Assembly (NCBI GenBank): GCA_964591715.1 | Contig: CAZQDR010000003.1 | Location: 269 to 64,268 of the forward strand | Source of the DNA: an uncultured Candidatus Saccharibacteria bacterium | GTDB lineage: Bacteria > Patescibacteriota > Minisyncoccia > Phycocordibacterales > JACOZG01 | Direction: 5' to 3' | Length of the DNA: 64,000 bases | In this document: positions 25,792 to 47,929 of the stretch, in pieces | How positions within the stretch are numbered: the stretch's first letter is position 1 | Layout: each line of letters opens with the position of its first letter | The notes under the pieces: model-generated | What the model was told of the DNA's origin: nothing | Databases searched by the model: none | Seen by the model: the letters and a program-made list of their open reading frames with translations, nothing else | Translations under genes and position numbers: made by a program

Positions 25792-26376
25792 TTAGAGGTG
25801 ACTGTGGTGTAAGGCTTGATTAATAATTTCGAGCGCCAGCTGCTGGCGCTCGGCCGACAACTCGAGCGGCGCCATGTCCCAGTCGTTGAAAGCAAAAATG
25901 ACCTCGAGCTCCGGGCGCTCCTCTACATAACCCAAACGGCGCAAAAGCCGCGCCACCCAAATTAGCTCAAAATTGACTAGCTCCGCTTCGGTCAAAAAAG
26001 GTCGTTCCAAAAAATGGGCTCCGCTTTTAAACTCCTCAAAAAAATCGGGCTGGGCCACTTCACCGGTTACTAAGCGCAAAATCAGTTGGGCAACCCGGGC
26101 CAGGAGCTGCAGGCGCACCGCTTCGCGGTGCGCCGCCAATTCCCCCGCCTCAACATGCACCACGCGCCAGACCTCCCGGCCTCGCACCAACGAGACCTCC
26201 GGCCAACTAAATAATTGCAGATTATAACGGAGCTTAGACTTTAATTCCCGCAAACCTTGGGCGGTAGCGTTAACCAAACCGTGATCACGCGTATACAAAG
26301 TCAGCGTCCGGGTTGCTTCGCTCGCCTCTCGGACACCCAACACGACCGCTGGCGTGGTGTAAATTTGATGCGACAT
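25792..26376 (-). CDS. recO: DNA repair protein RecO (short form)
   Basis: N-terminal OB-like TPAVVLGVREASEATRTLTLYTRDHGLVNATAQGLRELKSKLR. The start overlaps the ileS stop (TAATG). Confidence 0.6.
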   Translation of the reverse strand: MSHQIYTTPAVVLGVREASEATRTLTLYTRDHGLVNATAQGLRELKSKLRYNLQLFSWPEVSLVRGREVWRVVHVEAGELAAHREAVRLQLLARVAQLILRLVTGEVAQPDFFEEFKSGAHFLERPFLTEAELVNFELIWVARLLRRLGYVEERPELEVIFAFNDWDMAPLELSAERQQLALEIINQALHHSHL

Positions 26377-29300
26377 TATTCGTAACGAAAAGCGCTCGCG
26401 CAGGTCGCGACTTTTATTTCGTGCTCATACTTCTCGGCCAAGCTCTGTTTGGCAATCGGTATAACCACTTCCGCTTGTTCTCCTGCCTTCAAGCCGCTTT
26501 CTTTACGCCAATCCTGAATTTCGCGAATCAAATCGCGCAGTTCCCCCTCCTCCTTAAGTTCAGGAGTGATAGTCAAATCAAGTTCTACCACTGCCGACAA
26601 GTTAGGATCAAAGATTACCGCTTTAACATTTACTTCGTCTTGGATAAGTTGAGCCAGTTCAGCGGAGAGCGGAGCACTTTTGGCTTTAAGTTCTTTTAGT
26701 GGTTGGCGAACTTTAATCGCGGCTTTGGCTCGCGCCTCTAAGCCACCCGAGACGAGCTGGCGCACGAGTTGCATCGCGGTAATAATTTCTTCGTCGCTCT
26801 TGTCGGCCTCGGGCCAATGCTCTAAGTGCACGCTCTCCGCGCCACCTTTCAATTTCAAATAAATTTCCTCAGCAACAAAGGGCGTAAATGGGGCCATCAA
26901 GCACGACAACACCAACAGCGTCCGGCGGAGCGTATCCATCACTGCCTGCGCCTCAGCGGGATCAGTGGGCTTAAAGCGATCGCGCGACCGGCGTAAATAC
27001 CAAGTTGATAAATCGTCCACAAATTCGTCGATGGGCCGCAAAGCCCGATCAAGCTCATAAGACTCCATCGCCGCTGTTACTAATCCAATCACTTCGTTAA
27101 GCCGGTCGTTAATCCAACGATCTAAAATATGAGTACTAGCGGCATCGCTCGGAACGTGGGCGCCGGCGTACAGTTCATAAAACGCCACCACGTTCCGCAG
27201 ACGGCCCAGCACCCGATTACTGGTCTCGCGCAAACCACGCTCCGAAAAATTAAATTCTTCAGCATGTACCGCTGGTGATGAGAGCAAGTAAAAACGCAAC
27301 GCGTCCGCGCCAAAAGTATCAATCGTGGGTTCCAGATCGGGATAATTTTTTAGACGCTTAGACATCTTTTGGCCATCCTCGGCTAAAATCAAACCATTCA
27401 CTACGACACGCTTAAAGGGGGGGCGATTAAAAAGTCCCAGCGAGAGCACCAGCAAAACATAAAACCAGCCGCGAGTTTGATCCAAACCTTCGGCAATAAA
27501 GTCCGCGGGAAAATGCTTTTCAAACTCTTCCTTGTTGGCAAACGGATAATGTAACTGGCCGTAAGGCATGGAACCGGACTCAAACCACACATCAAAAACA
27601 TCGGGTACGCGCGCCATCTCGGCACCACACTCGCAACGGAGTTTAACCTCATCAATATACGGCCGGTGAAAGTCGAGCTCGTAGGCTTGATTGTGCGGGA
27701 GAGCGACAAAGGGCAGTGGTCGCGATTCGGCGGTTTTTAAAAAGTAACGATCCTCACTCTGCGCGGCTTCGGCCTCGTGATCATTAAAGCCTTGGGCTCC
27801 CACCATCAATAACCAGCCCACCGCTTCGTGAGTGATCAGTAAAATATTTTTACCCGCATAACGAGCGTCAATCTCATACAGCGACTGGAGCGCCCGCGCC
27901 TTCACCTCATGAAAGTTTTCCCCCGCTGGTGGCGCCTTAGTAAAGCGCTCGGCTCGACCACTGAAAAAAGCGTGGAACTTAGCCACCGACCCCCCCTCCA
28001 ATTCGCCAAAGCCCACCTCGCGCAGGCGCTCATCCAAAACCACTTGATCGGCCGGTACTCCTAAAGCCTCCGCCATGAGCGCCGCCGTCTCTCGTGTTCG
28101 CAAAACTGGCGAAGTAATGATCAGATCAATTTTTTCCTTAGCCAAAGTTTTACCGGTGGCTTCTACTTGCTCACGGCCATTTTCCGTTAAATGATTGTCG
28201 CCATCGAGCGCCGAGGTAACAATGCTTTGTACGTTCGACTGGGCCTCGCCGTGACGCATGACCCAATAATTATTTTTTGGCTGCCGCTTAGCAGTGAGCT
28301 CCTCGAGTGAGCCAATCACTTCAATTTTTTTGCAGCTTTCGCAACGCCAGACCGGTAGCGGCGCCCCCCAGTAACGCGAACGCGATACTGCCCAATCGCG
28401 CGCCCCCTCCAGCCATTTACCAAAGCGACCGTCTTTAATATATTCCGGCACCCAAGTTACGCCCTCGTTTGCCTTCAAGAGTGCCTCCTTCATCGTACTT
28501 ACAGCAATAAACCAGGATGATGACGCGTAGTTTAAGAGAGGTGTATCGCAACGCCAACAATGAGGGTAGGGGTGAGTAATTTTTTCCTTCGCAAAAAAGG
28601 TGCCATGCTCCTGCAAATATTTTAAGACTGCAATGTCAGCCGAGAGACGCTCCTTCTCATCTTCACTCTTGGGTTTAACTGGCAGACCGGCAAAATCTTT
28701 GACCGCCGCTTTAAAGTGACCGCTAGTATCAACGTGCTGGATAAAAGGTAAATTTTTAGCCTGACCCAACTTTAAGTCGTCCTCGCCGAATGCCGGTGCA
28801 ATATGGACAATGCCGGTACCATCCTCGGTTGTCACAAAATCCGCGCCGTAAACCTGCCAACCGTTCTCCTTATTTTTCAGCGTCGTATCATTCTGATAAT
28901 AATCAAAAACTGGTTGATACTTTTTACCCACCAATTTTTGTCCGGTAAATGTTTCTTCAATGGTAAAATTATCGGTTAAAACTTTTGTGGCCAGCGCCTC
29001 CGCCACAATCAACTTAATTCCGCCCTTTTCGACTCGAACATAGTTCAGTTCGGGATTAACCGCCAGCGCCACATTACCTGGCAGCGTCCAAGGTGTCGTG
29101 GTCCAGGCCAACAAGTAAGTCCCCGGCTCATCAACCAGTTCAAATTTTACCGTCACCGACAAATCCGTGACATCTTTGTAACCCTGATTAACCTCAAAGT
29201 TAGCCAGCGTTGTCTCACAGCGCGGGCACAAATGCATAGACTTGTAACCTTCGTAGGCCAAGCCCTTGTCGTAGAGTTGTTTAAAAATCCACCACACCGT

Positions 29301-29771
29301 CTCGGTGTAACTGGAGTCCATCGTTTTATAATCGTTCTCCATGTCCACAAAACGGCCAATGCGGGGAATAATCCTTTTCCACTCGTCAGCATAACGGAGC
29401 ACGCTCTCTCGTGCCTTTTGGTTAAAGACGTCAATCCCCAACGCTTCAATATCCTTTTTGGTTTTTAGACCCAACTCTTTCTCGATCAGGTTCTCGATCG
29501 GCAAGCCGTGACAATCCCAACCCCAGCGACGCGCCACTCTAAAGCCGCGCATGGTTTGATAGCGTGGAATAGCGTCTTTAATCGAGGTCGGCAGCAAGTG
29601 ACCAAAGTGAGGCAAACCGGTCGCAAAGGGCGGCCCATCATAAAAAACGTACTCGCCTTTGGGCGCATCTTTAGCCAGGGACTTGGCGAAAATTTGGTGA
29701 TCTTGCCAGAACTTAAGGATCTCTTCCTCGCGTTTGGCAACATCGGATTTTTGGGGCAGAGCTTCGGCCAT
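26376..29771 (-). CDS. ileS: Isoleucyl-tRNA synthetase with an inserted histidine-phosphatase domain
   Basis: PPFATGLPHFGHLL (HIGH region), the editing-domain WTTTPWTLPGN, and KMSKRLKN. The ~195-aa insert carries RHGE...SPVLRTRETA...THE motifs; see findings. Confidence 0.9.
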   Translation of the reverse strand: MAEALPQKSDVAKREEEILKFWQDHQIFAKSLAKDAPKGEYVFYDGPPFATGLPHFGHLLPTSIKDAIPRYQTMRGFRVARRWGWDCHGLPIENLIEKELGLKTKKDIEALGIDVFNQKARESVLRYADEWKRIIPRIGRFVDMENDYKTMDSSYTETVWWIFKQLYDKGLAYEGYKSMHLCPRCETTLANFEVNQGYKDVTDLSVTVKFELVDEPGTYLLAWTTTPWTLPGNVALAVNPELNYVRVEKGGIKLIVAEALATKVLTDNFTIEETFTGQKLVGKKYQPVFDYYQNDTTLKNKENGWQVYGADFVTTEDGTGIVHIAPAFGEDDLKLGQAKNLPFIQHVDTSGHFKAAVKDFAGLPVKPKSEDEKERLSADIAVLKYLQEHGTFFAKEKITHPYPHCWRCDTPLLNYASSSWFIAVSTMKEALLKANEGVTWVPEYIKDGRFGKWLEGARDWAVSRSRYWGAPLPVWRCESCKKIEVIGSLEELTAKRQPKNNYWVMRHGEAQSNVQSIVTSALDGDNHLTENGREQVEATGKTLAKEKIDLIITSPVLRTRETAALMAEALGVPADQVVLDERLREVGFGELEGGSVAKFHAFFSGRAERFTKAPPAGENFHEVKARALQSLYEIDARYAGKNILLITHEAVGWLLMVGAQGFNDHEAEAAQSEDRYFLKTAESRPLPFVALPHNQAYELDFHRPYIDEVKLRCECGAEMARVPDVFDVWFESGSMPYGQLHYPFANKEEFEKHFPADFIAEGLDQTRGWFYVLLVLSLGLFNRPPFKRVVVNGLILAEDGQKMSKRLKNYPDLEPTIDTFGADALRFYLLSSPAVHAEEFNFSERGLRETSNRVLGRLRNVVAFYELYAGAHVPSDAASTHILDRWINDRLNEVIGLVTAAMESYELDRALRPIDEFVDDLSTWYLRRSRDRFKPTDPAEAQAVMDTLRRTLLVLSCLMAPFTPFVAEEIYLKLKGGAESVHLEHWPEADKSDEEIITAMQLVRQLVSGGLEARAKAAIKVRQPLKELKAKSAPLSAELAQLIQDEVNVKAVIFDPNLSAVVELDLTITPELKEEGELRDLIREIQDWRKESGLKAGEQAEVVIPIAKQSLAEKYEHEIKVATCASAFRYE

Positions 29772-31701: not shown

Positions 31702-32292
31702 TCAGCGGGAGAATACCCGACTGCCGTCGCGCCACTCACGCGGACCCTCGACCGCACGGGCGTTCACGCCCCAACCGGCCTTAAGCCAGTCCACACCGAC
31801 CAAGAGCAGAACTCCTTCAGCGTCGCGAACGTAAAAGATGTTCACGTAACCATTGTTAAGGAGCGCGCCACTCTCGCCTTTCGCCTGCCGACTGATCAGC
31901 TGAACAATGGCGGAAAGCGTGGTCTCCACCTTCTCCTCTCCACCCAACTCGGCGATGATTCGTAGATCGCGAGACTGCTTCCTGAGTCGGTGGGAGCGGA
32001 GCACAGTCTCCGGCTGCGGTTCCTCCACCTTGTTGCCGAACCAAGTCTTGAAGTTCTTACCAAGCCAGGCGATACCACTCTGGCCGACGACCAACTCCTG
32101 TTCGGCAACGAACTTGGCCGTGGTCGCGACGATGGTGATAGTAGTGAGGAAGTCGAGAATGCTGTCCACGATTTCCTCAATCACCACCTTTGCCTTTCCG
32201 GCGAGCAGGCTCTTGGCGTTCTCCTCACCAATAATGTTGATGAGCGCTTCCACCTGACCGAACGACCAACCGCTATACTTGTAACTAGCCAT
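31702..32292 (-). CDS. Hypothetical protein, paralog A of an unknown family
   Basis: Start re-picked at MASYKYSGW (ATG at 32292). The C-terminal ~130 aa align with the 32500-32994 product. Confidence 0.6.
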   Translation of the reverse strand: MASYKYSGWSFGQVEALINIIGEENAKSLLAGKAKVVIEEIVDSILDFLTTITIVATTAKFVAEQELVVGQSGIAWLGKNFKTWFGNKVEEPQPETVLRSHRLRKQSRDLRIIAELGGEEKVETTLSAIVQLISRQAKGESGALLNNGYVNIFYVRDAEGVLLLVGVDWLKAGWGVNARAVEGPREWRDGSRVFSR

Positions 32293-32388
32293 AGCACACA
32301 AACCTTTCCGGCTAAAAGCCGAGAAACTGCCTCTACCCGAGGTGGGGGCTGTATTCACTCGAATCCAGCGTTTCAAAGAACTAATATT

Positions 32389-32417
32389 AGTATACACCTA
32401 ATTACCCTATTTGTCAA
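32389..32417 (-). promoter_or_regulatory. Sigma70-type promoter TTGACA-17-TATACT for paralog A
   Basis: -35 at 32412-32417 and -10 at 32389-32394. A ~95-nt leader follows. Confidence 0.6.
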
Positions 32418-32499: not shown

Positions 32500-32994
32500 T
32501 TAGCGGCGGGCGATGTCGACGGAGAAGAAGCGCACTTGGCGACTCTTCAACCAGCCGTCGTAATCGGCCCAAGTCAGGCCAACATTCCAGCGTCGGGAAT
32601 ACTTAAAGAGAACGACGCATCGAGGCTGCCGGCGGCCGTCCAGGATATTGAACAGATTCAACCCGCCATCGGCAATCAGGGCGTCGCCACCCTGGGACGA
32701 TTGATCAATCAACCAAGCCAGGTCGGCCAAGGTCGTATGGGCTCGAGCCCACTCGGCGAGAGAGACCTCCATCTCGGCCCGATTGGACCAATTTGAAGAT
32801 TGATCCCACCTCAACTGCGCCGCCGCCTGGGCCGCCTCCACCTTGTCGAGGAAGCTGTTCCTAAAGTGGGGTGATAGAGCCGCTGGGTCGAACCGCTCGG
32901 CGGTGAAGAACTTGGCGGCCACAAACCGTGGCAGGGCTGGCCGAACAATGGCTGCTGGGCTCTGAATTACCGTCGCACTACTCGTTACCATCAT
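32500..32994 (-). CDS. Hypothetical protein, paralog B of an unknown family
   Basis: Start re-picked at MMVTSS (ATG at 32994), preceded by GGAGGAGG. Confidence 0.6.
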   Translation of the reverse strand: MMVTSSATVIQSPAAIVRPALPRFVAAKFFTAERFDPAALSPHFRNSFLDKVEAAQAAAQLRWDQSSNWSNRAEMEVSLAEWARAHTTLADLAWLIDQSSQGGDALIADGGLNLFNILDGRRQPRCVVLFKYSRRWNVGLTWADYDGWLKSRQVRFFSVDIARR

Positions 32995-33042
32995 TTCCTC
33001 CTCCCGGGGAAAATATAACAAACAACAGATACTCCACCCTTG

Positions 33043-33071
33043 TTTATACCTCTTCTTTAACCTATTGTCAA
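33043..33071 (-). promoter_or_regulatory. Sigma70-type promoter TTGACA-17-TATAAA for paralog B
   Basis: -35 at 33066-33071 and -10 at 33043-33048. The first 15 nt resemble the paralog A promoter. Confidence 0.55.
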
Positions 33072-33073
33072 CT

Positions 33074-33502
33074 CTACTTGCGGCCCGTGCTACCAAAAGC
33101 ACTGGTGCCCCGAGAAGAATCGGCCAGTTCAGCGGCTTCTTCCAACTCGGCGACCGCGACGGGATAAATGATAAGTTGAGCCACCTTATCCCCCACTTCA
33201 ACGGTATATGCCTTGTCGCTCAAATTAACCAAGTGAACATTATACTCGCCGCGATAACCAGCATCGAACACGCCACCCATGGTATGTAATCCTGCTTTAG
33301 AGATACTCCCCTTGTCTTTAATAATCGCCGCATAACCAGCTGGGAACTCTAAGGCAAAACCCAAATGGAATCGCGCGTGATCACCCGGCAGAATAGTTTG
33401 TTCTTCTAGAGCATACAAATCTAATCCGGCGTCTCCAGGATGACCATAGGTTGGCTGCTTTGCTTCCGGCTTTAATTTTTTAAACTTTATGGACAGGGAC
33501 AT
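33074..33502 (-). CDS. dut: dUTP diphosphatase (trimeric dUTPase)
   Basis: GDAGLDLYA, GVFDAGYRGE, and the C-terminal RGTSAFGSTG motif. Confidence 0.9.
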   Translation of the reverse strand: MSLSIKFKKLKPEAKQPTYGHPGDAGLDLYALEEQTILPGDHARFHLGFALEFPAGYAAIIKDKGSISKAGLHTMGGVFDAGYRGEYNVHLVNLSDKAYTVEVGDKVAQLIIYPVAVAELEEAAELADSSRGTSAFGSTGRK

Positions 33503-34187
33503 GTTTCTTCACTAATTTATAAACTTGCTCATGGACCGCTTCGGGCGTTTGGCAAACCATTCCGGCACAACACTCAATGCGGCGCCACTTTTTATCTTTC
33601 TCGGCTAAGGCCAGCGCGCTCTGGCGCGAATTTTTAAGATGGAGCAGATTATCCTCGGCAACATCTTTGCGGCCCTTTAAATATTTCTTACGGCGCTTGG
33701 CGATCTTTTTCTCAAGCCACAGCTTACTCACCTCAAATGGCACGTCTAAATAAATCACCAAATCTGGTTTGGGAATTTTAAAAACGCCGTACTCCATTTT
33801 ATCAAGCCAAGTTAAAAACTCCTGACGCTTTTTAGGATCAGCGATTTTGCCACCCTGGTGGATTTGGTTAGCACTGACATAACGATCAGCGACAACAACA
33901 AAGCCAGCCGCGAGCCACTCTTTAATTTTGGCACTAGTCTCAAAACGGTCCGCGGCATAGAGCACTGAGGCTAGGCGTGGATCAGCCTGAATAAAATCAC
34001 CATGGAGTCCGGAAAGATATTCGCCAATTAAAGCGCCAAAAAAATTATCATAATAACGAGGGAAGTCGATCGTTTTAACCGGCACCTTCTCTTTTTTCAA
34101 CCGGTCAGCTAAAAGTTTAGTTTGCGTCGCCTTGCCTGAACCATCAATCCCGTCAATCACCACTAACCGTCCTGCCGTTTTAGTCAT
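33480..34187 (-). CDS. tmk: Thymidylate kinase
   Basis: VVIDGIDGSGKATQTKLL P-loop and the DRY motif (VADRYVSAN). Confidence 0.85.
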   Translation of the reverse strand: MTKTAGRLVVIDGIDGSGKATQTKLLADRLKKEKVPVKTIDFPRYYDNFFGALIGEYLSGLHGDFIQADPRLASVLYAADRFETSAKIKEWLAAGFVVVADRYVSANQIHQGGKIADPKKRQEFLTWLDKMEYGVFKIPKPDLVIYLDVPFEVSKLWLEKKIAKRRKKYLKGRKDVAEDNLLHLKNSRQSALALAEKDKKWRRIECCAGMVCQTPEAVHEQVYKLVKKHVPVHKV

Positions 34188-35445
34188 TTTGTTTTTTAAT
34201 TTTTCTTAAAATTTGATCAATCTTGCCGGCCAATATTTTTACCTGTTTTTCTTTGGCACCGCGGGTAGTCTCGGCCGCTAAACCAATCCGGATTCCCGAC
34301 GGGTCAACGGGCGGCCGAGTATCAAAAGGAATCGCATTTTTGTTCACAATAATCCCCGCCTGCTCTAGCGCCTCACTCGCTGCCTGACCACCAACACCGA
34401 CGCCGTTTAACCAAGTGTCCAGCAAGATCAAGTGGGTGTCGGTGCCATCACTGACTAGCCGCCAGCCCAGCTTCTTTAACTCCATTGCTAGCGTTTTGGT
34501 GTTCTTGATAATTTGAGTGGCGTACTTCTTAAACGCCGGCGTGGCTGCCTCGGCAAGCGCCACCGCCACGCCGGCAATTTGGTTAACATGCGGCCCCCCT
34601 TGGATACCCGGGAAAACCGCTTTATCTATTAAGTCAGAAATAAGCTTCGGTTCGGGCGCAGACTTTCTTCCATCACGGTCAACGAGGGAAATGATTCCAG
34701 AAAGCCCGCGCCCAACCTGCGCCGGTACCCGCCGGCTGAAGATTAATGCCGCTCTCGGACCACGCAAAGTTTTGTGGGTGGTAGTGGTCACGACGTCAGC
34801 GTATGGGAAAGGGCTCGGATGGACGCCCGCGGCCACCAGACCAGCAATGTGCGACATGTCTACCATCAGGATTGCTCCGCAGGCGTCGGCAATCTCGCGA
34901 AACTTTTTGAAATTAATCTGACGCGGATAAGCCGTAAAACCGGCGACAATAATATTTGGTTTTTCTTTAACTGCCAAAACTTTAACCGCTTCGTAATCTA
35001 ACTGTTCACTATCACGGTCAACGGTAAACGGGATTTGCTGCCAGGCTTTGCCAGTTAGGGAGACTTTGTGACCGTGCGTTAAATGACCGCCATGCGCTAG
35101 CGACATGCCCATAATTTTCCCCCCGATTGGGACGAGCGCAGTGTACACCGCCAAGTTGGCCGGTGAACCAGAAAGCGGCTGAACATTCACGGCCCACTTC
35201 TTTGGGCTAAGTTTAAAAAGTTTCAGCGCTCGTTCTTGGCAAAGTCGCTCTACCTGATCAATGATTTTATTGCCGCCATAATAACGCGCGCCCGGATAAC
35301 CCTCGGCATACTTATTATTTAATTCCGAACCCAGCGCCGCCAAAACATCGGCGGAAACATAGTTCTCTGACGCAATTAAATTAACTACCTTCTGTTGTCG
35401 CTCTCGCTCGGCCTTGATCAATCGTTCAATCGGTTTATCTTTCAT
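34180..35445 (-). CDS. glyA: Serine hydroxymethyltransferase
   Basis: NLIASENYVS and the PLP-lysine segment VVTTTTHKTLRGPR. Confidence 0.95.
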   Translation of the reverse strand: MKDKPIERLIKAERERQQKVVNLIASENYVSADVLAALGSELNNKYAEGYPGARYYGGNKIIDQVERLCQERALKLFKLSPKKWAVNVQPLSGSPANLAVYTALVPIGGKIMGMSLAHGGHLTHGHKVSLTGKAWQQIPFTVDRDSEQLDYEAVKVLAVKEKPNIIVAGFTAYPRQINFKKFREIADACGAILMVDMSHIAGLVAAGVHPSPFPYADVVTTTTHKTLRGPRAALIFSRRVPAQVGRGLSGIISLVDRDGRKSAPEPKLISDLIDKAVFPGIQGGPHVNQIAGVAVALAEAATPAFKKYATQIIKNTKTLAMELKKLGWRLVSDGTDTHLILLDTWLNGVGVGGQAASEALEQAGIIVNKNAIPFDTRPPVDPSGIRIGLAAETTRGAKEKQVKILAGKIDQILRKIKKQND

Positions 35446-35454
35446 GTTTAAGAT

Positions 35455-35943
35455 TTATTTTTTACGACTGCCGTGGAATCTGAGATGGGCATCATCCGTA
35501 ACATACAGCGTTTTTATCCCCGCCTCCAGCATCCGCTCCCAGCAAGGTTGGCAGGCCCACCAGTGACCCCACAAATAGACTTCCGCCCCCGCGGTGACTT
35601 CCCCATTTTTTATTGCATCCGCCACGGCTCGTGATTCTGAGTGAAGCTTGTAATTAGAGCACCCCGGACAAAGCCAATACTTTTGGCCAGTTTTAATTTT
35701 TAACTTGTGCCGGACACACCAACCCTTGGTGTGAAGATCAGCCAAAAAAGCATTCTTTAGTGCTGATTGATTGGCTCCCCGACCGATAATTTTACCGCCC
35801 TCAACAACCACCGCCCCACTTGGCTGATTACGTTCCGTGGCCGACTGAAAACGCATTTTCTTGGCTTCAGCCATAAATTGGTCCGTCTCAGGCACCAACT
35901 TAATCTCGCAACCAGCAGGCAAATAAGGGTAGATAATCGTCAT
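35455..35943 (-). CDS. Cytidine/deoxycytidylate deaminase-fold zinc enzyme (dCMP deaminase-like) with an extra Cys-rich insert
   Basis: An HSE zinc/catalytic motif (KLHSESRAV) and PCxxC (CQPCWERM). The insert is CVRHKLKIKTGQKYWLCPGC. Confidence 0.65.
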   Translation of the reverse strand: MTIIYPYLPAGCEIKLVPETDQFMAEAKKMRFQSATERNQPSGAVVVEGGKIIGRGANQSALKNAFLADLHTKGWCVRHKLKIKTGQKYWLCPGCSNYKLHSESRAVADAIKNGEVTAGAEVYLWGHWWACQPCWERMLEAGIKTLYVTDDAHLRFHGSRKK

Positions 35944-35967
35944 GTGGCCATTGTCTCATAGCTCTAG

Positions 35968-35973
35968 TATAAT
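35968..35973 (+). promoter_or_regulatory. -10 element TATAAT 9 nt upstream of the thyA-like ATG
   Basis: Read directly. Only a weak -35 (TGGCCA at 17 nt) is present, and there is no SD. Confidence 0.4.
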
Positions 35974-35982
35974 TGGCAAAAT

Positions 35983-36819
35983 ATGACCGCCTTTGACCGA
36001 ATCTACCAGAATCTGTTAAGGCAAATCATGACCGAGGGCATTGCGGAAATGAGCGAGCGCACCGGCCACGAAACCCGGGCCATCCCCGGCCTCCACTTTA
36101 CGACCGACCTCCAAAAAGACGGCTTCCCCCTACTTACCCTGCGCAAAATACCAATTCGGGTCTTCGTGGCCGAGCAAATTTGGTTTCTCCTTGGCTCGCG
36201 CAAACCAGCCGACTTTCTGCGGGAGTACACTAAAATTTGGGATGACTTTACCAACCCAGGCGATGTCGTCACGGTCGCTTACGGTTACCGTTGGCGCAAA
36301 CATTTTGGCCGCGATCAAATCGCCCTGTTGATTGAACTTTTAACCAAGGAGCCAAGTTCGCGCCACGGCGTCGTAATTGCTTGGGATCCAGCCCAGGATG
36401 GCTTGTCGCTGTTTAAAAAGAAAAACGTCCCCTGTCCCTACACCTTTACCGTTAATATTATTGGCGGACACCTCCATCTCCACAACATGATTCGCTCTAA
36501 CGACGTCATGCTCGGCATGCCTCACGACGTGGCGGGCTTTGCTTTGCTCCAGTGCATTTTAGCCGAACGATTAGGAGTAAAGCCGGGCATTTACTCGCAC
36601 TCTATTTCTAACGCTCATGTTTACGACATTCACTACTCAGCCGCGGAAGAAATAATTAGCCGCCACAACGATCATCCTAATGTGACACTCGAGATTCCCG
36701 CCAACACCTTTGCCCGGATCGAGAACCGCGACCCGGCGATAGCCAAAGAACTAATCGATCAACTGACTAACCAGTACACACCAATGGATGCCATTAAAGG
36801 TTTACAAATTGTCCTCTAA
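35983..36819 (+). CDS. Thymidylate-synthase-family C5-pyrimidine transferase with Asp at the base-specificity position
   Basis: ThyA-like motifs DRTG-like ERTGHET, FPLLTLRK, YGYRWR, DQI, SSRHGVVIAWDP, PCP (Cys151), and RSNDVMLGMPHDVAGF (Asp182). Confidence 0.8.
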   Translation: MTAFDRIYQNLLRQIMTEGIAEMSERTGHETRAIPGLHFTTDLQKDGFPLLTLRKIPIRVFVAEQIWFLLGSRKPADFLREYTKIWDDFTNPGDVVTVAYGYRWRKHFGRDQIALLIELLTKEPSSRHGVVIAWDPAQDGLSLFKKKNVPCPYTFTVNIIGGHLHLHNMIRSNDVMLGMPHDVAGFALLQCILAERLGVKPGIYSHSISNAHVYDIHYSAAEEIISRHNDHPNVTLEIPANTFARIENRDPAIAKELIDQLTNQYTPMDAIKGLQIVL

Positions 36820-37316
36820 TGATTCCAGCGTTTATTATTGCCAGCGTGACCGCCGACGGCCTGATTGCCCGTGATGCTAGTCACGCGGCCACCTGGTCCA
36901 GCCAAGCTGATAAAAAGTTTTTTGTGACCCGAACCAAAGCCGCTGGTGCGATCATTATGGGCGCTAAAACTTTTGCCACTATTGGCCGACCCCTCCCAGA
37001 ACGCTTAAATGTGGTTTACACCCATCAACCTTCACCTCACCCTGAAGTCTTGGCCACCGCTTTGCCGCCAGCGGAACTACTGGCGGAACTTGAGCGCCGG
37101 GGCATTAGGGAGGCGGCCATTTGCGGGGGCAGTTCAATTTATACGCTCTTTCTTAAGGCCGGCCTGGTCCAGAAAATTTATTTAACTGTTGAACCACGCC
37201 TCTTCGGCCAAGGCCTCTCGCTTTTTAATCAGGAACTGGACCTCACCCTCAAGCTTTTGTCGACTCAACAATTAGCCCCAGACGTCGTATTATTGGAGTA
37301 TCAAGTAATCACCTAA
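36819..37316 (+). CDS. RibD C-terminal / DHFR-fold reductase
   Basis: IIASVTADGLIA...IIMGAKTF...GGSSIY pattern. Coupled to the upstream gene by a TAATG overlap. Confidence 0.6.
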   Translation: MIPAFIIASVTADGLIARDASHAATWSSQADKKFFVTRTKAAGAIIMGAKTFATIGRPLPERLNVVYTHQPSPHPEVLATALPPAELLAELERRGIREAAICGGSSIYTLFLKAGLVQKIYLTVEPRLFGQGLSLFNQELDLTLKLLSTQQLAPDVVLLEYQVIT

Positions 37317-37318
37317 TC

Positions 37319-37960
37319 ATGGCTGTTATCACCAAAGAAGACATTATCGAACGAATCAAGGGAGGGAGCTTAAAGTTTGTCCCCAATCTCGACGTCTTCC
37401 AGCTTCAAAGCCACTCGGTTGACTTGCGGCTGGGCTTTACTTTTATGCTGCCCAAGATTTGGCATCTCACTACCCGCGGCCGCGAGTCACTCGACATCCT
37501 CCATTTTGATAAACGGACTCAAGAATATTTTGATATCGTAGAACTAGAGGAGGGTCAATACTTTGATCTCTTGCCTCAAGAATATATTTTGGTTTCCACC
37601 CTCGAGACTTTAACTGTCCCTAAAGATTTGATGGCTGTGCTTTATCCGCGCTCCTCGACCAATCGCAAAGGTTTGTCGCTCGACTTAACGGGCATTATTG
37701 ATTCGGGTTACGAAGGCCAGCTAAGCTTACCGATTCGCAATAATACTCGTTCGCAAACAGTGCGACTTTATCCGGGCGAGCGTCTCTGCCAAGTGGTTTT
37801 TGAAGAACTAACCCAAACAATTAACCCGCGCCAAAGTAAGTATCACCAGCGTGACATCATTGACGGCGTTCAGCGCGAAGCCGAAACGGAAGTTAAGTTG
37901 TTGTTAGCCGGAAAAATAAAAGAGTTAAAGCGTGACCACGCTGTCGAGGGCTTGATATAG
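37319..37960 (+). CDS. dCTP deaminase/dUTPase-fold protein lacking the deaminase Glu
   Basis: SVDLRLG, PRSSTNRKGL, and IIDSGYEGQLSLPIRN. Pro138 sits where E. coli Dcd has Glu138. Confidence 0.7.
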   Translation: MAVITKEDIIERIKGGSLKFVPNLDVFQLQSHSVDLRLGFTFMLPKIWHLTTRGRESLDILHFDKRTQEYFDIVELEEGQYFDLLPQEYILVSTLETLTVPKDLMAVLYPRSSTNRKGLSLDLTGIIDSGYEGQLSLPIRNNTRSQTVRLYPGERLCQVVFEELTQTINPRQSKYHQRDIIDGVQREAETEVKLLLAGKIKELKRDHAVEGLI

Positions 37961-38470
37961 CTCTTCCACCTCGCCATTGTTATTGATCACCACCGAAGCG
38001 GCGTCTTTAAGCGACCGGATTTGAATCTCGGTTTCCAGTTGCTGATCTTTTTGAAATTGCTCCCAAGTTTTGCCGTTATCATCTGGATTCTCACCGCGAA
38101 CTGATAAACGCTTAAATCGAACCTCCGGGTCAGCCTCAAGATAAATTAATTTAAATTGGGGTAACTTTTGGAGAGCCTTAATGTCAGGCAAGCGACGGAT
38201 ACCATCAATGACCACCAGATCAGTCTTGGCGCCCGCCGCGTCCTTGGCCACTATCTCGGAAAATAAATCTTCGCCGAAGGTCTGGCGCAAGGCCAGCGAC
38301 AGTGCCGACATGTTCTCTCGCGTCTCGGTTAGATACAAGCGAGCCATAACGTCGCGCAGTGGCGTAGAAAAGCGATACGACTCGGCGTTAAACTTTTTAG
38401 CTAAATATTTCGTACTGAACGTCTTTCCTGAAGCCATCTCCCCCGTCAAACCAATAATTAATTTAGCCAT
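37925..38470 (-). CDS. P-loop nucleotide kinase (dNMP-kinase / CoaE-like)
   Basis: GLTGEMASGKT P-loop, YRFSTPLRDVMA, VIDGIRR, and terminal VINNNGEVEELY. This resembles T4 gp1-type dNMP kinases, from memory. The 3' end overlaps the convergent dcd-like gene by 36 nt. Confidence 0.5.
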   Translation of the reverse strand: MAKLIIGLTGEMASGKTFSTKYLAKKFNAESYRFSTPLRDVMARLYLTETRENMSALSLALRQTFGEDLFSEIVAKDAAGAKTDLVVIDGIRRLPDIKALQKLPQFKLIYLEADPEVRFKRLSVRGENPDDNGKTWEQFQKDQQLETEIQIRSLKDAASVVINNNGEVEELYQALDSVVTL

Positions 38471-38497
38471 ATGGGGATAATAATAATTGACCCCACC

Positions 38498-38512
38498 CTA
38501 AAAAGCAAAAGC
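38498..38512. repeat. 15-bp direct repeat CTAAAAAGCAAAAGC, copy 1
   Basis: Identical to 40604-40618. The two copies bracket the beta-helix gene. Confidence 0.8.
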
Positions 38513-38518
38513 TGGGCT

Positions 38519-40579
38519 TTAGCGGGCAGATTGAGCGCTCAGTCGGGCTTGAAATAAGCGGAGCAGAAGCTGGAGCGCCGGAGTGGAGGTCGCTGTCGGA
38601 GCCATGGTTGGAACCAAGACTGGCGATCCCACTGTTGCGGTTGGAGCATACACCTCATTGAGTTTGGCGAGCGTCTTAGGCCCTACCGCTCCCGCTGTCA
38701 CCGGCTCAGTAATCTGGTATTTCAACTGAAAGCGCTTTATCGCCTGAGAAGTAAGTGGCCCATAATAACCACTGACAATTGCCTCGGGATAGATTGTTCT
38801 ATCTTTCGCCAAGTACTGCTGCAAAATCTTAACTTGCTCACCGCGCGCCGCTGGCGCTAGCGCCGCCGTAAAGATTGGTGCCGCCCGGACAGCGGTCGGA
38901 GTACTGCGCGCCACTTCGCTACTTCGATTATTACTAACCCCCGATCCCCCACCACCCCCACCGCTGCGGCTACTGCCGCCCCCACCAACTGGGCGGGGTG
39001 GTGGTTCCGTCGGCACCACGGGTGTATCCGGCGCCACTGGCGTATCCACTGTCTCGCCAGGCGTAAAGGTCACTCGCAGCAAATATTGTGTTCGCACATC
39101 CGACAGCAAATAAGAAATTTTACCCTTCGCCACCGGTAGCGAGGTTGTGGCTTGAGCAACGCCATCAAGGCTAATCGTCGCCAACTGATAACCCGGCTTG
39201 GGGGTAATAGTGAAAAGTTGAGAGCCACCTTCCGGTACCGCAACCGTTCCAGGTGAAATACTTCCTCGCGTTGCCATCACGCCAATTAGTAAAACATTTA
39301 TATTGCGCATTGGTTGTCCGGCATCACTAAAAGTATTACGAACAGACATTCGGTCTTGAGCGATCTTTTGACTACGGACTGCACCATAGCGAATATTTCT
39401 AAAAGTGTTGTCGCTTGACTGCACCAAGGTAATCCCATTTTTAGCTGTGATTGAAATAATATTTTCGATTGTGCTACTTGAGGTGTACCCCAGATAGATT
39501 TCGTTAATCTGAGAATCGCGAACAGTAATGTTGCTGCAGTGCGTACAAATGAAAGCCGCCAAATCTAAACCACTAAATATTTTGTCTGAAATATCAGCAT
39601 AGTAAGCAACATCCTTACCCGCCACGGAATTGTTGGTGAAGTTATTGGTAAAGCCTTGGGGCTGATCGCCGATCGTCGTCTGATCCCAGTAAAAATTAAA
39701 ATCCTCGTTAAGGTTATCGTAAATCTGATTACCTGAAATAAGATTGTTATTGGTGCGCTTGGCACCGTAGCCATAACCGACCACCGTCCCAGCTTCCCAG
39801 CGGCGATAATGGGCGCGCAACAAATTTACAATAAAGCCAGATTTGTTATTGCGGATAATATTATCCTGGTACTCGCTGTGACTAGCCATAATCCTCATGC
39901 CCTCCACGCTGCTGTTCTCAATTATGTTGCGATTAATCTTCTGCCTATCTGGCCAAATGGCAGTTAAATCAGTTGTCCACATTGCCTGCAAACCCGGCGC
40001 GATGCCATATTGGCTGCCAGAAATTAAGTTGTCCGAGATCTCAATCCGCGGCGTTTCGTCGAGCATAATATTGGCGTCGGAGTTGTCGCGGATAATATTG
40101 TGGGAAATTAAAATATCACCGCTGGCGTACGTGGCCACCCCCATTCGGTTGTTATAAATCTCGCTGTCGAGTAAGGTAAAACCGTTACCACCACCACTGT
40201 GATGGACCCCGAATTCAAAGTCATGGACCTTACAATTCTTTATTAGCCTGATTGCTCGCGAGTCGTTAACCACAATACCCCGACCAGTTTTATTATTTCC
40301 CGCAATTTCAAAATTTGCACAATCAAGGGTGGGCGCATCCTTCCCCGGCTGACGCAGTCCCAAGGCCAGACCGTCAGCCGGGCAGGCTGTCTCACCACTG
40401 CGACCCCGCAAATTTTCAGTCAGAGTGTAATCGCCAATGATGGTATCACCGCAATAACAGGGTACCACCACGCCATTAATTAAGCCGCATTCAGTAACTG
40501 CGGCCATAACAGTTCGCCAGCCAAAAAGCAGCCCTGACACTAAAACCAGCATCCCGATACCATTGATGAGTTTGTTCAT
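38519..40579 (-). CDS. Secreted right-handed beta-helix (PbH1/NosD-like) protein with a Gly-rich linker and a C-terminal PG-binding domain
   Basis: Signal anchor; repeated NxIxxN beta-helix rungs (ISHNIIRDN, ISDNLISGS, INRNIIENS, YQDNIIRNN); a GGGGSSRSGGGGGGSG linker; and PG_binding_1-like GEQVKILQQYL...GPLTSQAIKRFQ. Confidence 0.65.
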   Translation of the reverse strand: MNKLINGIGMLVLVSGLLFGWRTVMAAVTECGLINGVVVPCYCGDTIIGDYTLTENLRGRSGETACPADGLALGLRQPGKDAPTLDCANFEIAGNNKTGRGIVVNDSRAIRLIKNCKVHDFEFGVHHSGGGNGFTLLDSEIYNNRMGVATYASGDILISHNIIRDNSDANIMLDETPRIEISDNLISGSQYGIAPGLQAMWTTDLTAIWPDRQKINRNIIENSSVEGMRIMASHSEYQDNIIRNNKSGFIVNLLRAHYRRWEAGTVVGYGYGAKRTNNNLISGNQIYDNLNEDFNFYWDQTTIGDQPQGFTNNFTNNSVAGKDVAYYADISDKIFSGLDLAAFICTHCSNITVRDSQINEIYLGYTSSSTIENIISITAKNGITLVQSSDNTFRNIRYGAVRSQKIAQDRMSVRNTFSDAGQPMRNINVLLIGVMATRGSISPGTVAVPEGGSQLFTITPKPGYQLATISLDGVAQATTSLPVAKGKISYLLSDVRTQYLLRVTFTPGETVDTPVAPDTPVVPTEPPPRPVGGGGSSRSGGGGGGSGVSNNRSSEVARSTPTAVRAAPIFTAALAPAARGEQVKILQQYLAKDRTIYPEAIVSGYYGPLTSQAIKRFQLKYQITEPVTAGAVGPKTLAKLNEVYAPTATVGSPVLVPTMAPTATSTPALQLLLRLFQARLSAQSAR

Positions 40580-40603
40580 TGCCCCAGCATATGCTTCTGA
40601 CCA

Positions 40604-40618
40604 CTAAAAAGCAAAAGC
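40604..40618. repeat. 15-bp direct repeat CTAAAAAGCAAAAGC, copy 2
   Basis: Forms the U-tract side of the terminator of the NDT-like gene. Confidence 0.8.
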
Positions 40619-40642
40619 CACCGCGAGTCCGTTCGCGGTGGC
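40604..40642 (-). terminator. Intrinsic terminator after the NDT-like gene
   Basis: GCCACCGCGA-GTCCG-TTCGCGGTGGC hairpin followed by TTTTGCTTTTT on the minus strand. Confidence 0.75.
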
Positions 40643-40663
40643 AATTTTGGTTTGGTGGGGAGT

Positions 40664-41170
40664 CTAACGTGAGAGGGGTTCGAAATAAGCCTTCTCCTTC
40701 AGAAAGTGTTGCCGTCGTGCCTCGTTGGCGAGAACGGCAAGCATGGGCAAATCCTTGAGCCAGAGACCGATTGTTTCTAATAGATCAGTACACTTGTCCA
40801 CATATTCGGCCGCCCGACAGTAGTTGTGATGCGGCTCAATACCCTGAATCAGGCGACTGATCTTGGAACCACGAGGGCTGACATTAAGGCAGGGCTTGAA
40901 AAAGCGGCCGATTCCAATTCCTTCTTCAAACCCCAAACCTGAGGACGCGCCATCCCAAATAGCCAAGATCCCGCGCGCCCGAGCCACCCCTCGATTGATA
41001 TCTTGCTCATAGACATCCCAAGGCGTGCCTTCGGTCATACCACAGAACTCCAAAATCTCGATCTCGGGAAAGCGGCGCCGAGCAAGGGACTTAAAATCCC
41101 TAATCTCCTGACGATACTCCTCGCTCTTGTCCGTCAACGGACACCCAAAGTAGAGTAAGATCTTATCCAC
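40664..41170 (-). CDS. Nucleoside 2-deoxyribosyltransferase / Rcl-like protein
   Basis: GTG start 6 nt after AAGGAG. ILLYFGCP matches the NDT IYFGAGW motif, and SSGLGFEEGIG matches the NDT catalytic GLGMELG. Confidence 0.55.
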   Translation of the reverse strand: MDKILLYFGCPLTDKSEEYRQEIRDFKSLARRRFPEIEILEFCGMTEGTPWDVYEQDINRGVARARGILAIWDGASSGLGFEEGIGIGRFFKPCLNVSPRGSKISRLIQGIEPHHNYCRAAEYVDKCTDLLETIGLWLKDLPMLAVLANEARRQHFLKEKAYFEPLSR

Positions 41171-46445: not shown

Positions 46446-46700
46446 ATGGCCACCATCATCAACACCCCAGCGAGAGCGAGCAGCGAGGAGAACGCCTGGG
46501 GAATTGTGCTCGCGGTAGTAGTTTTGGTCTTACTGGCGTTCTTCTTCTTTTCGTATTTGCTCCCAACGATGCGGGCTAATGCCCCAGCCGCTCCCGCCGC
46601 TACTCCTAGCACCCCGAGCGCCAGCATTAATGTTGAGCTACCAACGCCCGTTCAACCTCAGAGTCCAACTCCGGCTCCAACCAACGGCACAGTTCAATAA
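46446..46700 (+). CDS. Possible small membrane protein with a Pro-rich tail
   Basis: TM helix WGIVLAVVVLVLLAFFFFSYLL followed by a PAAPAATPSTPS tail. It competes with an antisense ORF. Confidence 0.35.
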   Translation: MATIINTPARASSEENAWGIVLAVVVLVLLAFFFFSYLLPTMRANAPAAPAATPSTPSASINVELPTPVQPQSPTPAPTNGTVQ

Positions 46701-47926
46701 ACTTCGCCCCAAAACGGCAGTGGTAATCGCCGATTCATCGACCCGCCTCTGGCGGGTCGATGTTGTTTAGCCACCAAACTCGAGGCTAAAAATACCGCCG
46801 CGGTGCCGCGATCACAGTGGAGGCGATCAACTATTTGATAGAGTTCCCGCGCTTGGTCACCACGGCAACTGTCGCCAAAAAGGTCCAATTGCGCTGGCGA
46901 TCGATCTCTAAAATGACTCAGCGTTACCCCGGTACTTCGATAACGGCAACCAGAGCGATACCAACGCAAACAGTAGCGAGAGGCCAGCGTCACCAACTCT
47001 CCTGGTTCAACAATTGGTCGCTCAAGCCTAAGCTCAAAAGAGTGGTAACGAAAGTCTTGGGTTTTAAAAAAGAAAAACACATGACATGGCTCCAACTCGT
47101 AGGCCCGGGCCTCTCGGCAAGCCGCTTCAATGTTTTTAGACAAATGAGACAAGAGAAAAGAAAGTTCCGTGGTGGGTGGAGTAAAAGTGCCGGTCCGACT
47201 AATCGAGCCATAGCTCTCCCGACCAACTGTTCCCACTAACTTAACCGCCTTGCCGCCCAACTCCAACCACAACTCATAGTAGGGTTGGGCAAAATGCTCC
47301 CGCACCCACCACTCGGGCTTAGCGGCAAATTGAGCGGCCGTCTTTAACCCCAGAGCCGCCAGCGCCCGAGTGGTCCGCGGTCCAATACCCCAAACTTTAC
47401 CCAAGGCTAATTGCTGCAAGATTTCCAGACGATTGGTCTCATCCATTATCACTAAGCCCGAGGGCTTACGCCACTTCGAGGCCACTTTTGCCAAAACTTT
47501 AGTTTCCGCCAGGCCCAAAGAGAAGGTGGTATTCAATTCCCGCTCTAGAGCATTTTTAATTTCCGCCACTAAGGCTCGGTAGTCCAAGCGCCGCGGCAAC
47601 TGCCAACCAGTAAGATCAGCAAAACACTCATCAATACTGTACTCCTCAACCACAGGGGTATAGCGACGAACAATCGCATACATCCGCCGAGCGTAACTTC
47701 GATAGAGCTCGTAGTCAGAGGGCAAAATAACTACTTCCGGATAACGGCGTCGGATTTGGAACACTGGCATCCCCCGCGTCACACCTAAAGCCTTGGCTTC
47801 ATAACTAAGAGCCGCAGCTATCCCCCGATCTTGGCCGACCACCACTGGTTTACCGCGCAAAGACGGGTCACGAGAAATTTCACACCCAGCGAAAAAGGCA
47901 TCACCATCAACATGCAAAATAGGCAT
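46694..47926 (-). CDS. Y-family DNA polymerase (DinB/UmuC-like)
   Basis: ILHVDGDAFFAGCE, YSIDECFADLTG, and the HhH region VWGIGPRT. Confidence 0.85.
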   Translation of the reverse strand: MPILHVDGDAFFAGCEISRDPSLRGKPVVVGQDRGIAAALSYEAKALGVTRGMPVFQIRRRYPEVVILPSDYELYRSYARRMYAIVRRYTPVVEEYSIDECFADLTGWQLPRRLDYRALVAEIKNALERELNTTFSLGLAETKVLAKVASKWRKPSGLVIMDETNRLEILQQLALGKVWGIGPRTTRALAALGLKTAAQFAAKPEWWVREHFAQPYYELWLELGGKAVKLVGTVGRESYGSISRTGTFTPPTTELSFLLSHLSKNIEAACREARAYELEPCHVFFFFKTQDFRYHSFELRLERPIVEPGELVTLASRYCLRWYRSGCRYRSTGVTLSHFRDRSPAQLDLFGDSCRGDQARELYQIVDRLHCDRGTAAVFLASSLVAKQHRPARGGSMNRRLPLPFWGEVY

Positions 47927-47929
47927 CGC

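Follow-up and report, generated by a model that had tools for sequence, protein, structure and literature searches.

A conserved gene cluster of Patescibacteria that may form thymidylate by way of 5-methyl-dCMP

To our knowledge, all cellular organisms studied form thymidylate (deoxythymidine monophosphate, dTMP) through methylation of deoxyuridine monophosphate (dUMP) by ThyA or ThyX. The phages Xp12 and PaMx74 replace cytosine with 5-methylcytosine (5mC) by means of a ThyA homolog that methylates deoxycytidine monophosphate (dCMP), and the DNA of Xp12 is fully 5mC (bioRxiv 10.1101/2024.12.05.627091). The Xp12 operon encodes a pyrophosphohydrolase of the PRA-PH/MazG type, a thymidylate synthase (TS) homolog, a dCMP deaminase and a dihydrofolate reductase (DHFR). 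We analysed a gene cluster that resembles this operon in the DNA of an uncultured Candidatus Saccharibacteria bacterium (assembly GCA_964591715.1, contig CAZQDR010000003.1). The whole stretch, referred to here as the window, covers forward-strand positions 269-64,268 of the contig (64,000 nucleotides, nt), and the locus under study occupies window positions 33,074-41,170. We propose, with moderate confidence, that the cluster is a housekeeping thymidylate module of a large clade of Patescibacteria (Paceibacteria/Parcubacteria), in which dTMP would be made by way of 5-methyl-dCMP.

Replacing Asn177 of TS by Asp is known to change the substrate from dUMP to dCMP (Liu and Santi 1992, Hardy and Nalivaika 1992 and Graves 1992, as cited in PMC8670742). 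The engineered enzymes L. casei N229D and E. coli N177D are TS scaffolds with Asp at this specificity position, and they methylate dCMP. In a recent survey five of seven Asp-type TS homologs encoded beside deaminases made 5-methyl-dCMP experimentally; the CDA-fold deaminases found beside Asp-type ThyA homologs were frequently 5mC-selective, and they were proposed to supply dT from 5-methyl-dC nucleotides, bypassing conventional thymidylate synthase (bioRxiv 10.1101/2024.12.05.627091). As in Xp12, the ThyA homolog of our locus stands beside a CDA-fold deaminase and a DHFR. Families were assigned to the open reading frames (ORFs) of the locus with Pfam and NCBIfam profiles, and the two divergent arms of the cluster read as follows.

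33074-33502, minus strand: dut, trimeric dUTPase (PF00692, 88.6 bits; TIGR00576, 111.9 bits, above cut-off)
33480-34187, minus strand: tmk of a non-canonical subtype (PF02223, 74.3 bits)
34180-35445, minus strand: glyA, serine hydroxymethyltransferase (PF00464, 527.5 bits)
35455-35943, minus strand: CDA-fold deaminase of the dCMP-deaminase type (zinc site; fold match to dCMP deaminases)
35944-35982, no strand: divergent control region of 39 bp (promoter-like consensus matches on both strands)
35983-36819, plus strand: ThyA homolog of the Asp type (PF00303, 179.4 bits)
36819-37316, plus strand: DHFR-fold reductase (PF00186, 63.1 bits; PF01872, 66.6 bits)
37319-37960, plus strand: Dcd-fold protein without the catalytic Glu (PF22769, 113.2 bits; TIGR02274, 109.4 bits, cut-off 92.8)

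We found relatives in 207 species-level genomes and analysed the best 80 loci with 10-kb flanks by tblastn and at the ORF level; all gene and residue counts out of 80 refer to these best 80 of the 207 relatives. Aligned to E. coli ThyA and to thymidylate synthases of the PDB, the ThyA homolog carries Asp182 at the position of E. coli Asn177, a residue that all dUMP-methylating enzymes share and that reads the uracil O4/N3-H, in 80/80 homologs, so that the Asp type noticed in an earlier reading of this DNA (hereafter the original prediction) is invariant in the clade. Two further exchanges accompany it, Phe89 at E. coli Trp83 (80/80) and Pro152 at E. coli His147 (75/80). The catalytic Cys151 (E. 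coli C146) is present in 80/80 homologs, E64, R171, H212 and Y214 (E. coli Glu58, Arg166, His207 and Tyr209) are each present in 80/80, and the equivalent of Ser167 is also kept. Tested as a thymidylate synthase, the protein thus displays the PF00303 fold and the catalytic residues and lacks the Asn177/His147/Trp83 set. Xp12 has the same W83F/H147P/N177D signature, and over 14 signature sites the two differ only in the residue preceding the Asp. Unlike the engineered enzymes, the Asp here is natural and invariant and comes together with W83F and H147P.

Searches of phages and of proteins at large place the homolog close to the Xp12 enzyme. ThyA-family matches occur in 4,033 phage records, and the best of them come from the Xp12/PaMx74/DLP4/Bosa group (36-40% identity, expectation values (E) of 1e-45 to 1e-54). 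We also scanned 1.8 billion representative proteins with the ThyA homolog and typed the nearest 150 representatives of 50%-identity clusters by residue. Asp-type proteins make up 128 of these 150, most of them with the F/P/D signature of Xp12, whereas Asn-type (W/H/N) enzymes appear in the scan only from about E 1e-36 downwards. The family itself exceeds 2,000 proteins, every one of them from Patescibacteria/Paceibacterota, and its database name, where one is given, is 'thymidylate synthase'. When IMG/VR was scanned with the alignment of the ThyA homologs, no relative was returned, and a viral origin of the window clade was rejected on this ground.

In the next-nearest clade (P0121, 53% identity) the gene stands beside a divergent deaminase that shares the His/Cys insert described below, and a phage contig (P0125) carries a true dUTPase and a deaminase near its ThyA homolog. 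Another homolog (P0124) is preceded by a HIT protein. For an Asn-type control (P0213) DHFR was the sole neighbour of this kind. More distant Asp-type ThyA homologs are fused to a CDA-fold deaminase (P0143), to a PRA-PH/MazG-like pyrophosphohydrolase (P0157) or to an HNH endonuclease domain (P0163).

An ordinary thymidylate cluster would use the same gene families in another way: the ThyA homolog would methylate dUMP delivered by a dCMP deaminase, and the Dcd-like protein would be a second dUTPase or a regulatory relic. Although every family in the cluster is a classical one, dut and tmk are present, and automated annotation yields thymidylate synthase, dCTP deaminase and dCMP deaminase, the Asp at position 177 in 80/80 homologs with co-varying W83F and H147P matches known dCMP-specific enzymes, and Asn-type relatives, even the nearest, lie much further away than the Asp-type enzymes do. 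We therefore regard an ordinary cluster as distinctly improbable, and the Dcd-fold protein described below bears on it further.

Hydroxymethylases release tetrahydrofolate (THF) and hence need no DHFR, and the T4 hydroxymethylase is devoid of the TS C-terminal lid (PMC5175136). In our protein the C-terminal TS tail is kept, its alignment with E. coli ThyA extending right up to the terminus, and the start codon of the DHFR gene overlaps the stop codon of the ThyA homolog by one base. The AF2 model of the protein (pTM 0.82) matches full-length thymidylate synthases in Foldseek, including 1njc. Tail, overlap and full-length fold matches point to a methyl rather than a hydroxymethyl product. Within this fold, a preference for ribose goes with Ala176 and Lys133', and deoxy specificity with Ser and Arg (PMC5175136). 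Our protein has Ser172 and Arg127, in 80/80 homologs each, suggesting a deoxy and not a ribo substrate. Together, the Asp177 switch, the Xp12-like signature, the retained lid, the DHFR overlap and the Ser/Arg pocket argue that the ThyA homolog is probably a dCMP methylase, which would make 5-methyl-dCMP and dihydrofolate (DHF).

The same evidence bears on a hydroxymethyl pathway of the T4 gp42 or MilA kind, in which 5-hydroxymethyl-dCMP or 5-hydroxymethyl-CMP (hmCMP) from the ThyA homolog would go into a modified base or a natural product of the nucleoside type, and a DNPH1/NDT-like protein encoded nearby would serve as a MilB-type glycosidase. The specificity Asp is indeed common to gp42 and MilA, but the homolog is only 25% identical to gp42, it keeps the TS tail, its gene is tightly linked to a DHFR gene, and Ala176/Lys133' of MilA are Ser/Arg here. 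Likewise, a DNPH1/Rcl-like gene lies in the locus, and several of the DNPH1 entries of the PDB that match it are named 5-hydroxymethyl-dUMP N-hydrolase; this gene occurs in just 5/80 loci, however, and the setting is a housekeeping one, not a biosynthetic gene cluster. In our estimation such a pathway has a very slight probability. The analogy with the MilA/MilB pair, which the original prediction had drawn, was rejected because Ser172 and Arg127 occupy the places of MilA Ala176 and Lys133' in the ribose pocket.

The original prediction had further framed the cluster as a T4-like gene set (gp42, gp56, gp1, cd and frd). The functional logic is similar, as it combines a dCTPase and a DHFR with a ThyA homolog that modifies dCMP, a dCMP deaminase and a deoxynucleoside monophosphate (dNMP) kinase. 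However, T4 gp42 is a hydroxymethylase that ends about 40 alignment columns before the ThyA homolog and E. coli ThyA, and T4 gp56, an all-alpha protein (PF08761, dUTPase_2), has no significant similarity to the Dcd-fold protein. With gp42 at 25% identity against 36-40% for the Xp12 group, a non-homologous gp56 and a gp1 similarity that is local, we abandoned T4 as a model in favor of Xp12.

Besides the ThyA homolog and the DHFR, the operon encodes the Dcd-fold protein. It aligns along its length with dCTP deaminases, yet their 'ITLEL' reads 'LSLPI' here, placing Pro138 at the position of the catalytic Glu (E. coli E138). Counts for this protein are out of 77, since the remaining 3/80 contigs end early and hold insufficient downstream sequence. 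The gene lies in the ThyA operon in 77/77 loci with enough downstream sequence, and Pro138 is found in 77/77 homologs, so that the Glu-less state recorded in the original prediction is a fixed property of the clade. S113 and R116 of the RSSxxR motif are each present in 77/77. A stretch resembling dUTPase motif III, GIIDSGYEG, retains D128 in 76/77 and Y131 in 77/77, motif V is absent from the sequence, and the homologs are under strong purifying selection. An exchange of Glu for Pro in 77/77 homologs under such clear selection also argues against the ordinary cluster considered above.

Motif V is not needed for triphosphate hydrolysis by bifunctional DCD-DUT enzymes. By the known mechanism the Dcd-fold protein cannot deaminate, and triphosphate hydrolysis would be the remaining chemistry of its fold. 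A true dut often lies in the same cluster, which makes dCTP or 5-methyl-dCTP the most plausible substrate, and we propose that the protein is a (5-methyl-)dCTP diphosphatase. It would be a functional counterpart, not a homolog, of the MazG-like enzyme of Xp12 and of T4 gp56. We found no description of a Glu-less Dcd pyrophosphatase in the literature. At 109 bits against a TIGR02274 cut-off of 92.8, standard pipelines can be expected to mislabel the protein as 'dCTP deaminase' throughout the clade.

The deaminase is transcribed away from the ThyA homolog in 79/80 loci, and in these 79 it is encoded beside an Asp-type ThyA homolog, the genomic setting of 5mC-selective nucleotide deaminases (mSCD). 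Its zinc site is retained, with H101/E103 in 78/78 homologs and C131/C134 in 77/78. The extra Cys-rich insert of the original prediction proved to be real: it forms a cluster of H71, C76, C92 and C95 that is present in 78/78 homologs. The structural model is confident (pLDDT 90), and its closest folds are bona fide dCMP deaminases. No sequence marker is known for 5mC selectivity, a polyphyletic trait (bioRxiv 10.1101/2024.12.05.627091). We propose that the protein is a 5-methyl-dC nucleotide deaminase yielding dTMP (or dTTP).

The 39 bp between the deaminase and the ThyA homolog hold promoter-like matches on both strands. The best match of the region, TGGCCA-17-TATAAT, occupies 35945-35973 of the plus strand and ends 10 nt before the ATG at 35983; its counterpart on the minus strand is TTGCCA-18-GACAAT, which includes a TG, covers 35979-35950 and ends 7 nt before the ATG of the deaminase. 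Judged by these consensus matches, the region would hold overlapping promoter-like sites for both arms. The -10 elements of these sites, which end 7-10 nt before the start codons, imply that the transcripts of both arms would be nearly leaderless and co-regulated.

Conservation of gene order among the relatives supports the core of the cluster. In addition to the deaminase and the Dcd-like gene, a DHFR of the window type occurs in 64/80 loci, and an ORF that we assigned as canonical FolA-like by reading its sequence takes that slot in 3 more. The cluster sits between argS and rplK-nusG, usually with glyA, tmk and dut alongside the core. We found glyA in 60/80 related loci and a dut homolog within 10 kb in 34/80. 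Tmk is encoded in about 62/80 loci by two non-orthologous types that alternate among species (for example L038 8740-9390): the subtype of the window in 23 loci, and canonical Tmk (PF02223, 118.5 bits) in 39 others. Less frequent members are FolD (8/80) and a MazG-like gene (5/80). The recurrence of the core arrangement in 80/80 of these species-level genomes shows clustering far beyond chance. Had the order not been conserved in relatives, the original prediction would have taken the clustering for a coincidence of ordinary salvage genes; in the 80 loci the order is strongly conserved.

The original prediction had extended the set to a P-loop kinase, a surface protein and an NDT/Rcl-like gene, and this part did not hold. 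The kinase occurs in 1/80 loci (L047), the DNPH1/Rcl-like gene in 5/80 and the beta-helix (surface-protein) gene in 0/80. The conserved unit is thus smaller than proposed there, namely the deaminase divergent from an operon of ThyA-like, Dcd-like and DHFR genes, and the kinase, DNPH1-like and beta-helix genes are accessory genes or insertions.

The window as a whole is an ordinary housekeeping chromosome of Patescibacteria, which are also called the candidate phyla radiation (CPR), with aminoacyl-tRNA synthetases, RecA, RecO, SSB, FtsK, rplJ, rplK, nusG and CdaA, and with a G+C content of about 50% that is uniform along its length. A Pfam scan of 50 ORFs from across the 64-kb window detected no second ThyA, no ThyX and no DNA C5-methyltransferase. 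Neither canonical ThyA nor ThyX was seen in the 64-kb window or in the 10-kb flanks of the related loci, the regions that the analysis covered. A supplement to a Parcubacteria pan-genome gives thyA as near-core and leaves thyX unmentioned.

Taken together, these data suggest the following order of reactions. The Glu-less Dcd-fold protein would hydrolyse dCTP to dCMP, or return stray 5-methyl-dCTP to the monophosphate. The ThyA homolog would reductively methylate dCMP with 5,10-methylene-THF to give 5-methyl-dCMP and DHF, while DHFR and serine hydroxymethyltransferase (glyA) would recycle the folate to methylene-THF. The divergent enzyme of the dCMP-deaminase type would convert 5-methyl-dCMP to dTMP, and the clustered Tmk would phosphorylate dTMP to dTDP. 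Dut, whose motif V is readable as RGTSAFGSTG, would stay as a sanitiser, and in this scheme pool sanitation is probably its only role. We infer each substrate and product, and the mono- or triphosphate level of the deamination, from the gene identities, the invariant substitutions, the synteny across 80 species, the closeness to Xp12 and the fusions that link the same activities. The original prediction had left two readings side by side, conversion of dCMP to 5-methyl-dCMP and then to dTMP, or synthesis of a 5-substituted dCTP for DNA modification; the first fits best, given the Xp12-like signature, the DHFR overlap, the TS tail and Tmk in about 62/80 loci.

The proposed pathway shares with the canonical route (Dcd, Dut, ThyA, FolA and GlyA) its folds, its folate cycle and its product, dTMP. 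The order differs, since the canonical route deaminates, hydrolyses and methylates, whereas here hydrolysis would be followed by methylation and then deamination, and the CDA-fold deaminase would become obligatory. Human DCTD deaminates 5-methyl-dCMP to dTMP. Human DCTPP1 is a pyrophosphatase that acts on 5-methyl-dCTP (PMC4491611). The human pair likewise joins a 5-methyl-dCTP pyrophosphatase to a dCMP deaminase that gives dTMP, but it clears salvaged 5mC nucleotides, while our cluster would have a methylase devoted to producing the intermediate; moreover, the human pyrophosphatase is MazG-like and ours is Dcd-like.

With Xp12 the locus shares, besides the gene neighbours and the signature, the same proposed by-product route from 5-methyl-dC to dT. 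In contrast to the phage operon, the cluster here is a chromosomal, housekeeping one; it is conserved vertically across at least 207 species of bacteria, and it is absent from IMG/VR. The slot of the pyrophosphatase is filled by a Glu-less Dcd fold instead of the MazG type, the deaminase is remotely related, and glyA, tmk and dut are co-clustered. The end point here is probably dTMP rather than 5mC-DNA.

Several points weigh against the thymidylate pathway that we favor. In the bifunctional archaeal DCD-DUT enzymes, Glu variants that no longer deaminate retain dUTPase activity, and the Dcd-like protein could simply be a second dUTPase, its substrate being a guess. A bona fide dut in the cluster suits an ordinary pathway equally well. 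A canonical ThyA or ThyX may lie elsewhere in the same genomes, as our analysis covered the window and the 10-kb flanks. The deaminase is weakly similar to that of Xp12 (E 4e-4 over 50 residues), and mSCD-B5, the sole well-characterised 5mC-selective enzyme, acts on triphosphates and not on monophosphates (bioRxiv 10.1101/2024.12.05.627091).

A rival reading is that Xp12-like chemistry operates in a cell. The same enzymes would make 5-methyl-dCMP, phosphorylation of it would build a pool of 5-methyl-dCTP, and through its incorporation some or all genomic cytosine would be 5mC installed before replication; the Dcd-like protein would act as a dCTPase that excludes dCTP, and the deaminase would divert part of the pool to dT nucleotides. 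The functional set mirrors the operon of Xp12, a phage with fully 5mC DNA, exactly; the triphosphates required by mSCD-B5 imply a 5-methyl-dCTP pool, and a gp1-like dNMP kinase adjoins the operon in the window genome. However, that kinase is present in 1/80 loci as against about 62/80 for Tmk, which points to dTMP as the product. The G+C content of about 50%, with no obvious drift to AT, also speaks against methylated DNA, though as weak evidence, and we know of no cell in which cytosine is replaced by 5mC before replication. On balance, 5mC-DNA as the end point appears unlikely, and we retain the thymidylate pathway as the favored explanation.

The phage precedent of Xp12 and the engineered N229D and N177D enzymes are already known. 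What would be new is a bacterial lineage in which a module of the Xp12 type has become fixed as a housekeeping pathway and has a pyrophosphatase derived from Dcd; our search of the literature found no description of a dCMP-methylase pathway to thymidylate in a cellular organism. If the proposal is true, a major and widespread lineage would have a third cellular solution to thymidylate synthesis, in which dUMP and dUTP are not obligatory intermediates, and a Dcd enzyme would have turned pyrophosphatase. Thousands of CPR entries named 'thymidylate synthase' or 'dCTP deaminase' would need re-annotation. The clade would become a cellular source of dCMP methylases and perhaps of deaminases selective for 5mC, both of use in methylome sequencing. 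It would also raise the possibility of pre-replicative 5mC in a cellular genome, a strategy for which the known cases are so far phages such as Xp12.

The folate genes deserve separate mention. A 2025 study read folA, glyA and folD of CPR bacteria as folate 'public goods' without considering ThyA, and showed that folA genes of Paceibacterales complement E. coli delta-folA (PMC11974145). The pathway proposed here, if true, would give a simpler reason than folate sharing for the retention of these three genes in reduced genomes. A second, partial RibD_C/DHFR-like ORF of 164 amino acids (aa) lies at 62345-62839 on the minus strand, 25 kb from the cluster.

Beyond the operon, the right-hand part of the locus contains the following features.

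37925-38470, minus strand: P-loop (d)NMP-kinase-like protein, accessory (AAA_17, 45.4 bits; DNMK (PF21448), 22.8 bits, below the cut-off of 27.1)
38498-38512, no strand: downstream copy of a 15-bp direct repeat (terminator-tail sequence, no hairpin)
38519-40579, minus strand: beta-helix/peptidoglycan-binding surface protein (PF13229, PF05048 and PF01471)
40604-40642, minus strand: 15-bp repeat, upstream copy (40604-40618), forming the U-tail to the hairpin (40617-40642) of an intrinsic terminator
40664-41170, start possibly up to 41221, minus strand: DNPH1/Rcl-like protein of 168-185 aa (match through a profile of 7 homologs)

The Dcd-like gene and the kinase gene converge and overlap at 37925-37960 (36 nt). 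This overlap, the 39-bp divergent gap and all ten ORFs lie at the positions assigned to them in the original prediction. The kinase displays a P-loop and the motifs PLRD, DGIRR and NNNGEVEEL, and its best matches in the PDB are UPF0200/AdkA-like proteins of Sulfolobus (E 3e-10). Its similarity to T4 gp1 is local and restricted to both termini, whereas it is about 27% identical, over 99% of its length, to dNMP kinases of Bacillus phages that adjoin ThyA homologs. The resemblance to the gp1 type would be one of distant homology, and the kinase is no conserved member of the cluster.

As a single sequence the DNPH1/Rcl-like protein gave no match in Pfam, NCBIfam or the PDB. When a profile of its family was built from 7 homologs, DNPH1/Rcl of human and rat matched at E 2e-5, the catalytic Glu of G-x-G-x-E-x-G being aligned, while nucleoside deoxyribosyltransferases (NDTs) match the same profile at E 0.01-0.05. 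The YFG and GLGFEEG motifs on which the original prediction had based an NDT/Rcl-like identity are present, in agreement with the match of the family profile to DNPH1/Rcl. We consider the protein a putative 2'-deoxynucleoside-5'-phosphate N-glycosidase, for which a role as a sanitiser of unwanted pyrimidine dNMPs is plausible. A family of 151-aa ORFs in 7 loci was also tested as NDT-like and proved to be unrelated.

An exact 15-bp direct repeat, CTAAAAAGCAAAAGC, brackets the beta-helix gene at 38498-38512 and 40604-40618, just as had been described. The upstream copy forms the U-tail of the intrinsic terminator that follows the DNPH1-like gene, and the downstream copy stands without a hairpin. 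Absence of the beta-helix gene from all 80 loci, together with the bracketing repeat, suggests a recent insertion outside the pathway.

Further observations concern the neighbouring genes. Between argS and dut lie two tandem ORFs on the minus strand, 31702-32397 and 32500-33201, which are weak paralogs (E 2e-7) with no Pfam match; the latter overlaps the 3' end of dut if a TTG start is used. A DinB-type translesion polymerase (IMS domains) at 46694-48499 on the minus strand adjoins a LexA-like S24 peptidase, an SOS-type pair in a reduced genome. The isoleucyl-tRNA synthetase (26376-29771, minus strand, 1131 aa) carries a histidine-phosphatase domain (His_Phos_1) inserted at residues 503-667. 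The same insertion recurs in a 1172-aa family of this synthetase in 9 related loci (including L067 1928-5446), indicating that it is a feature of the clade.

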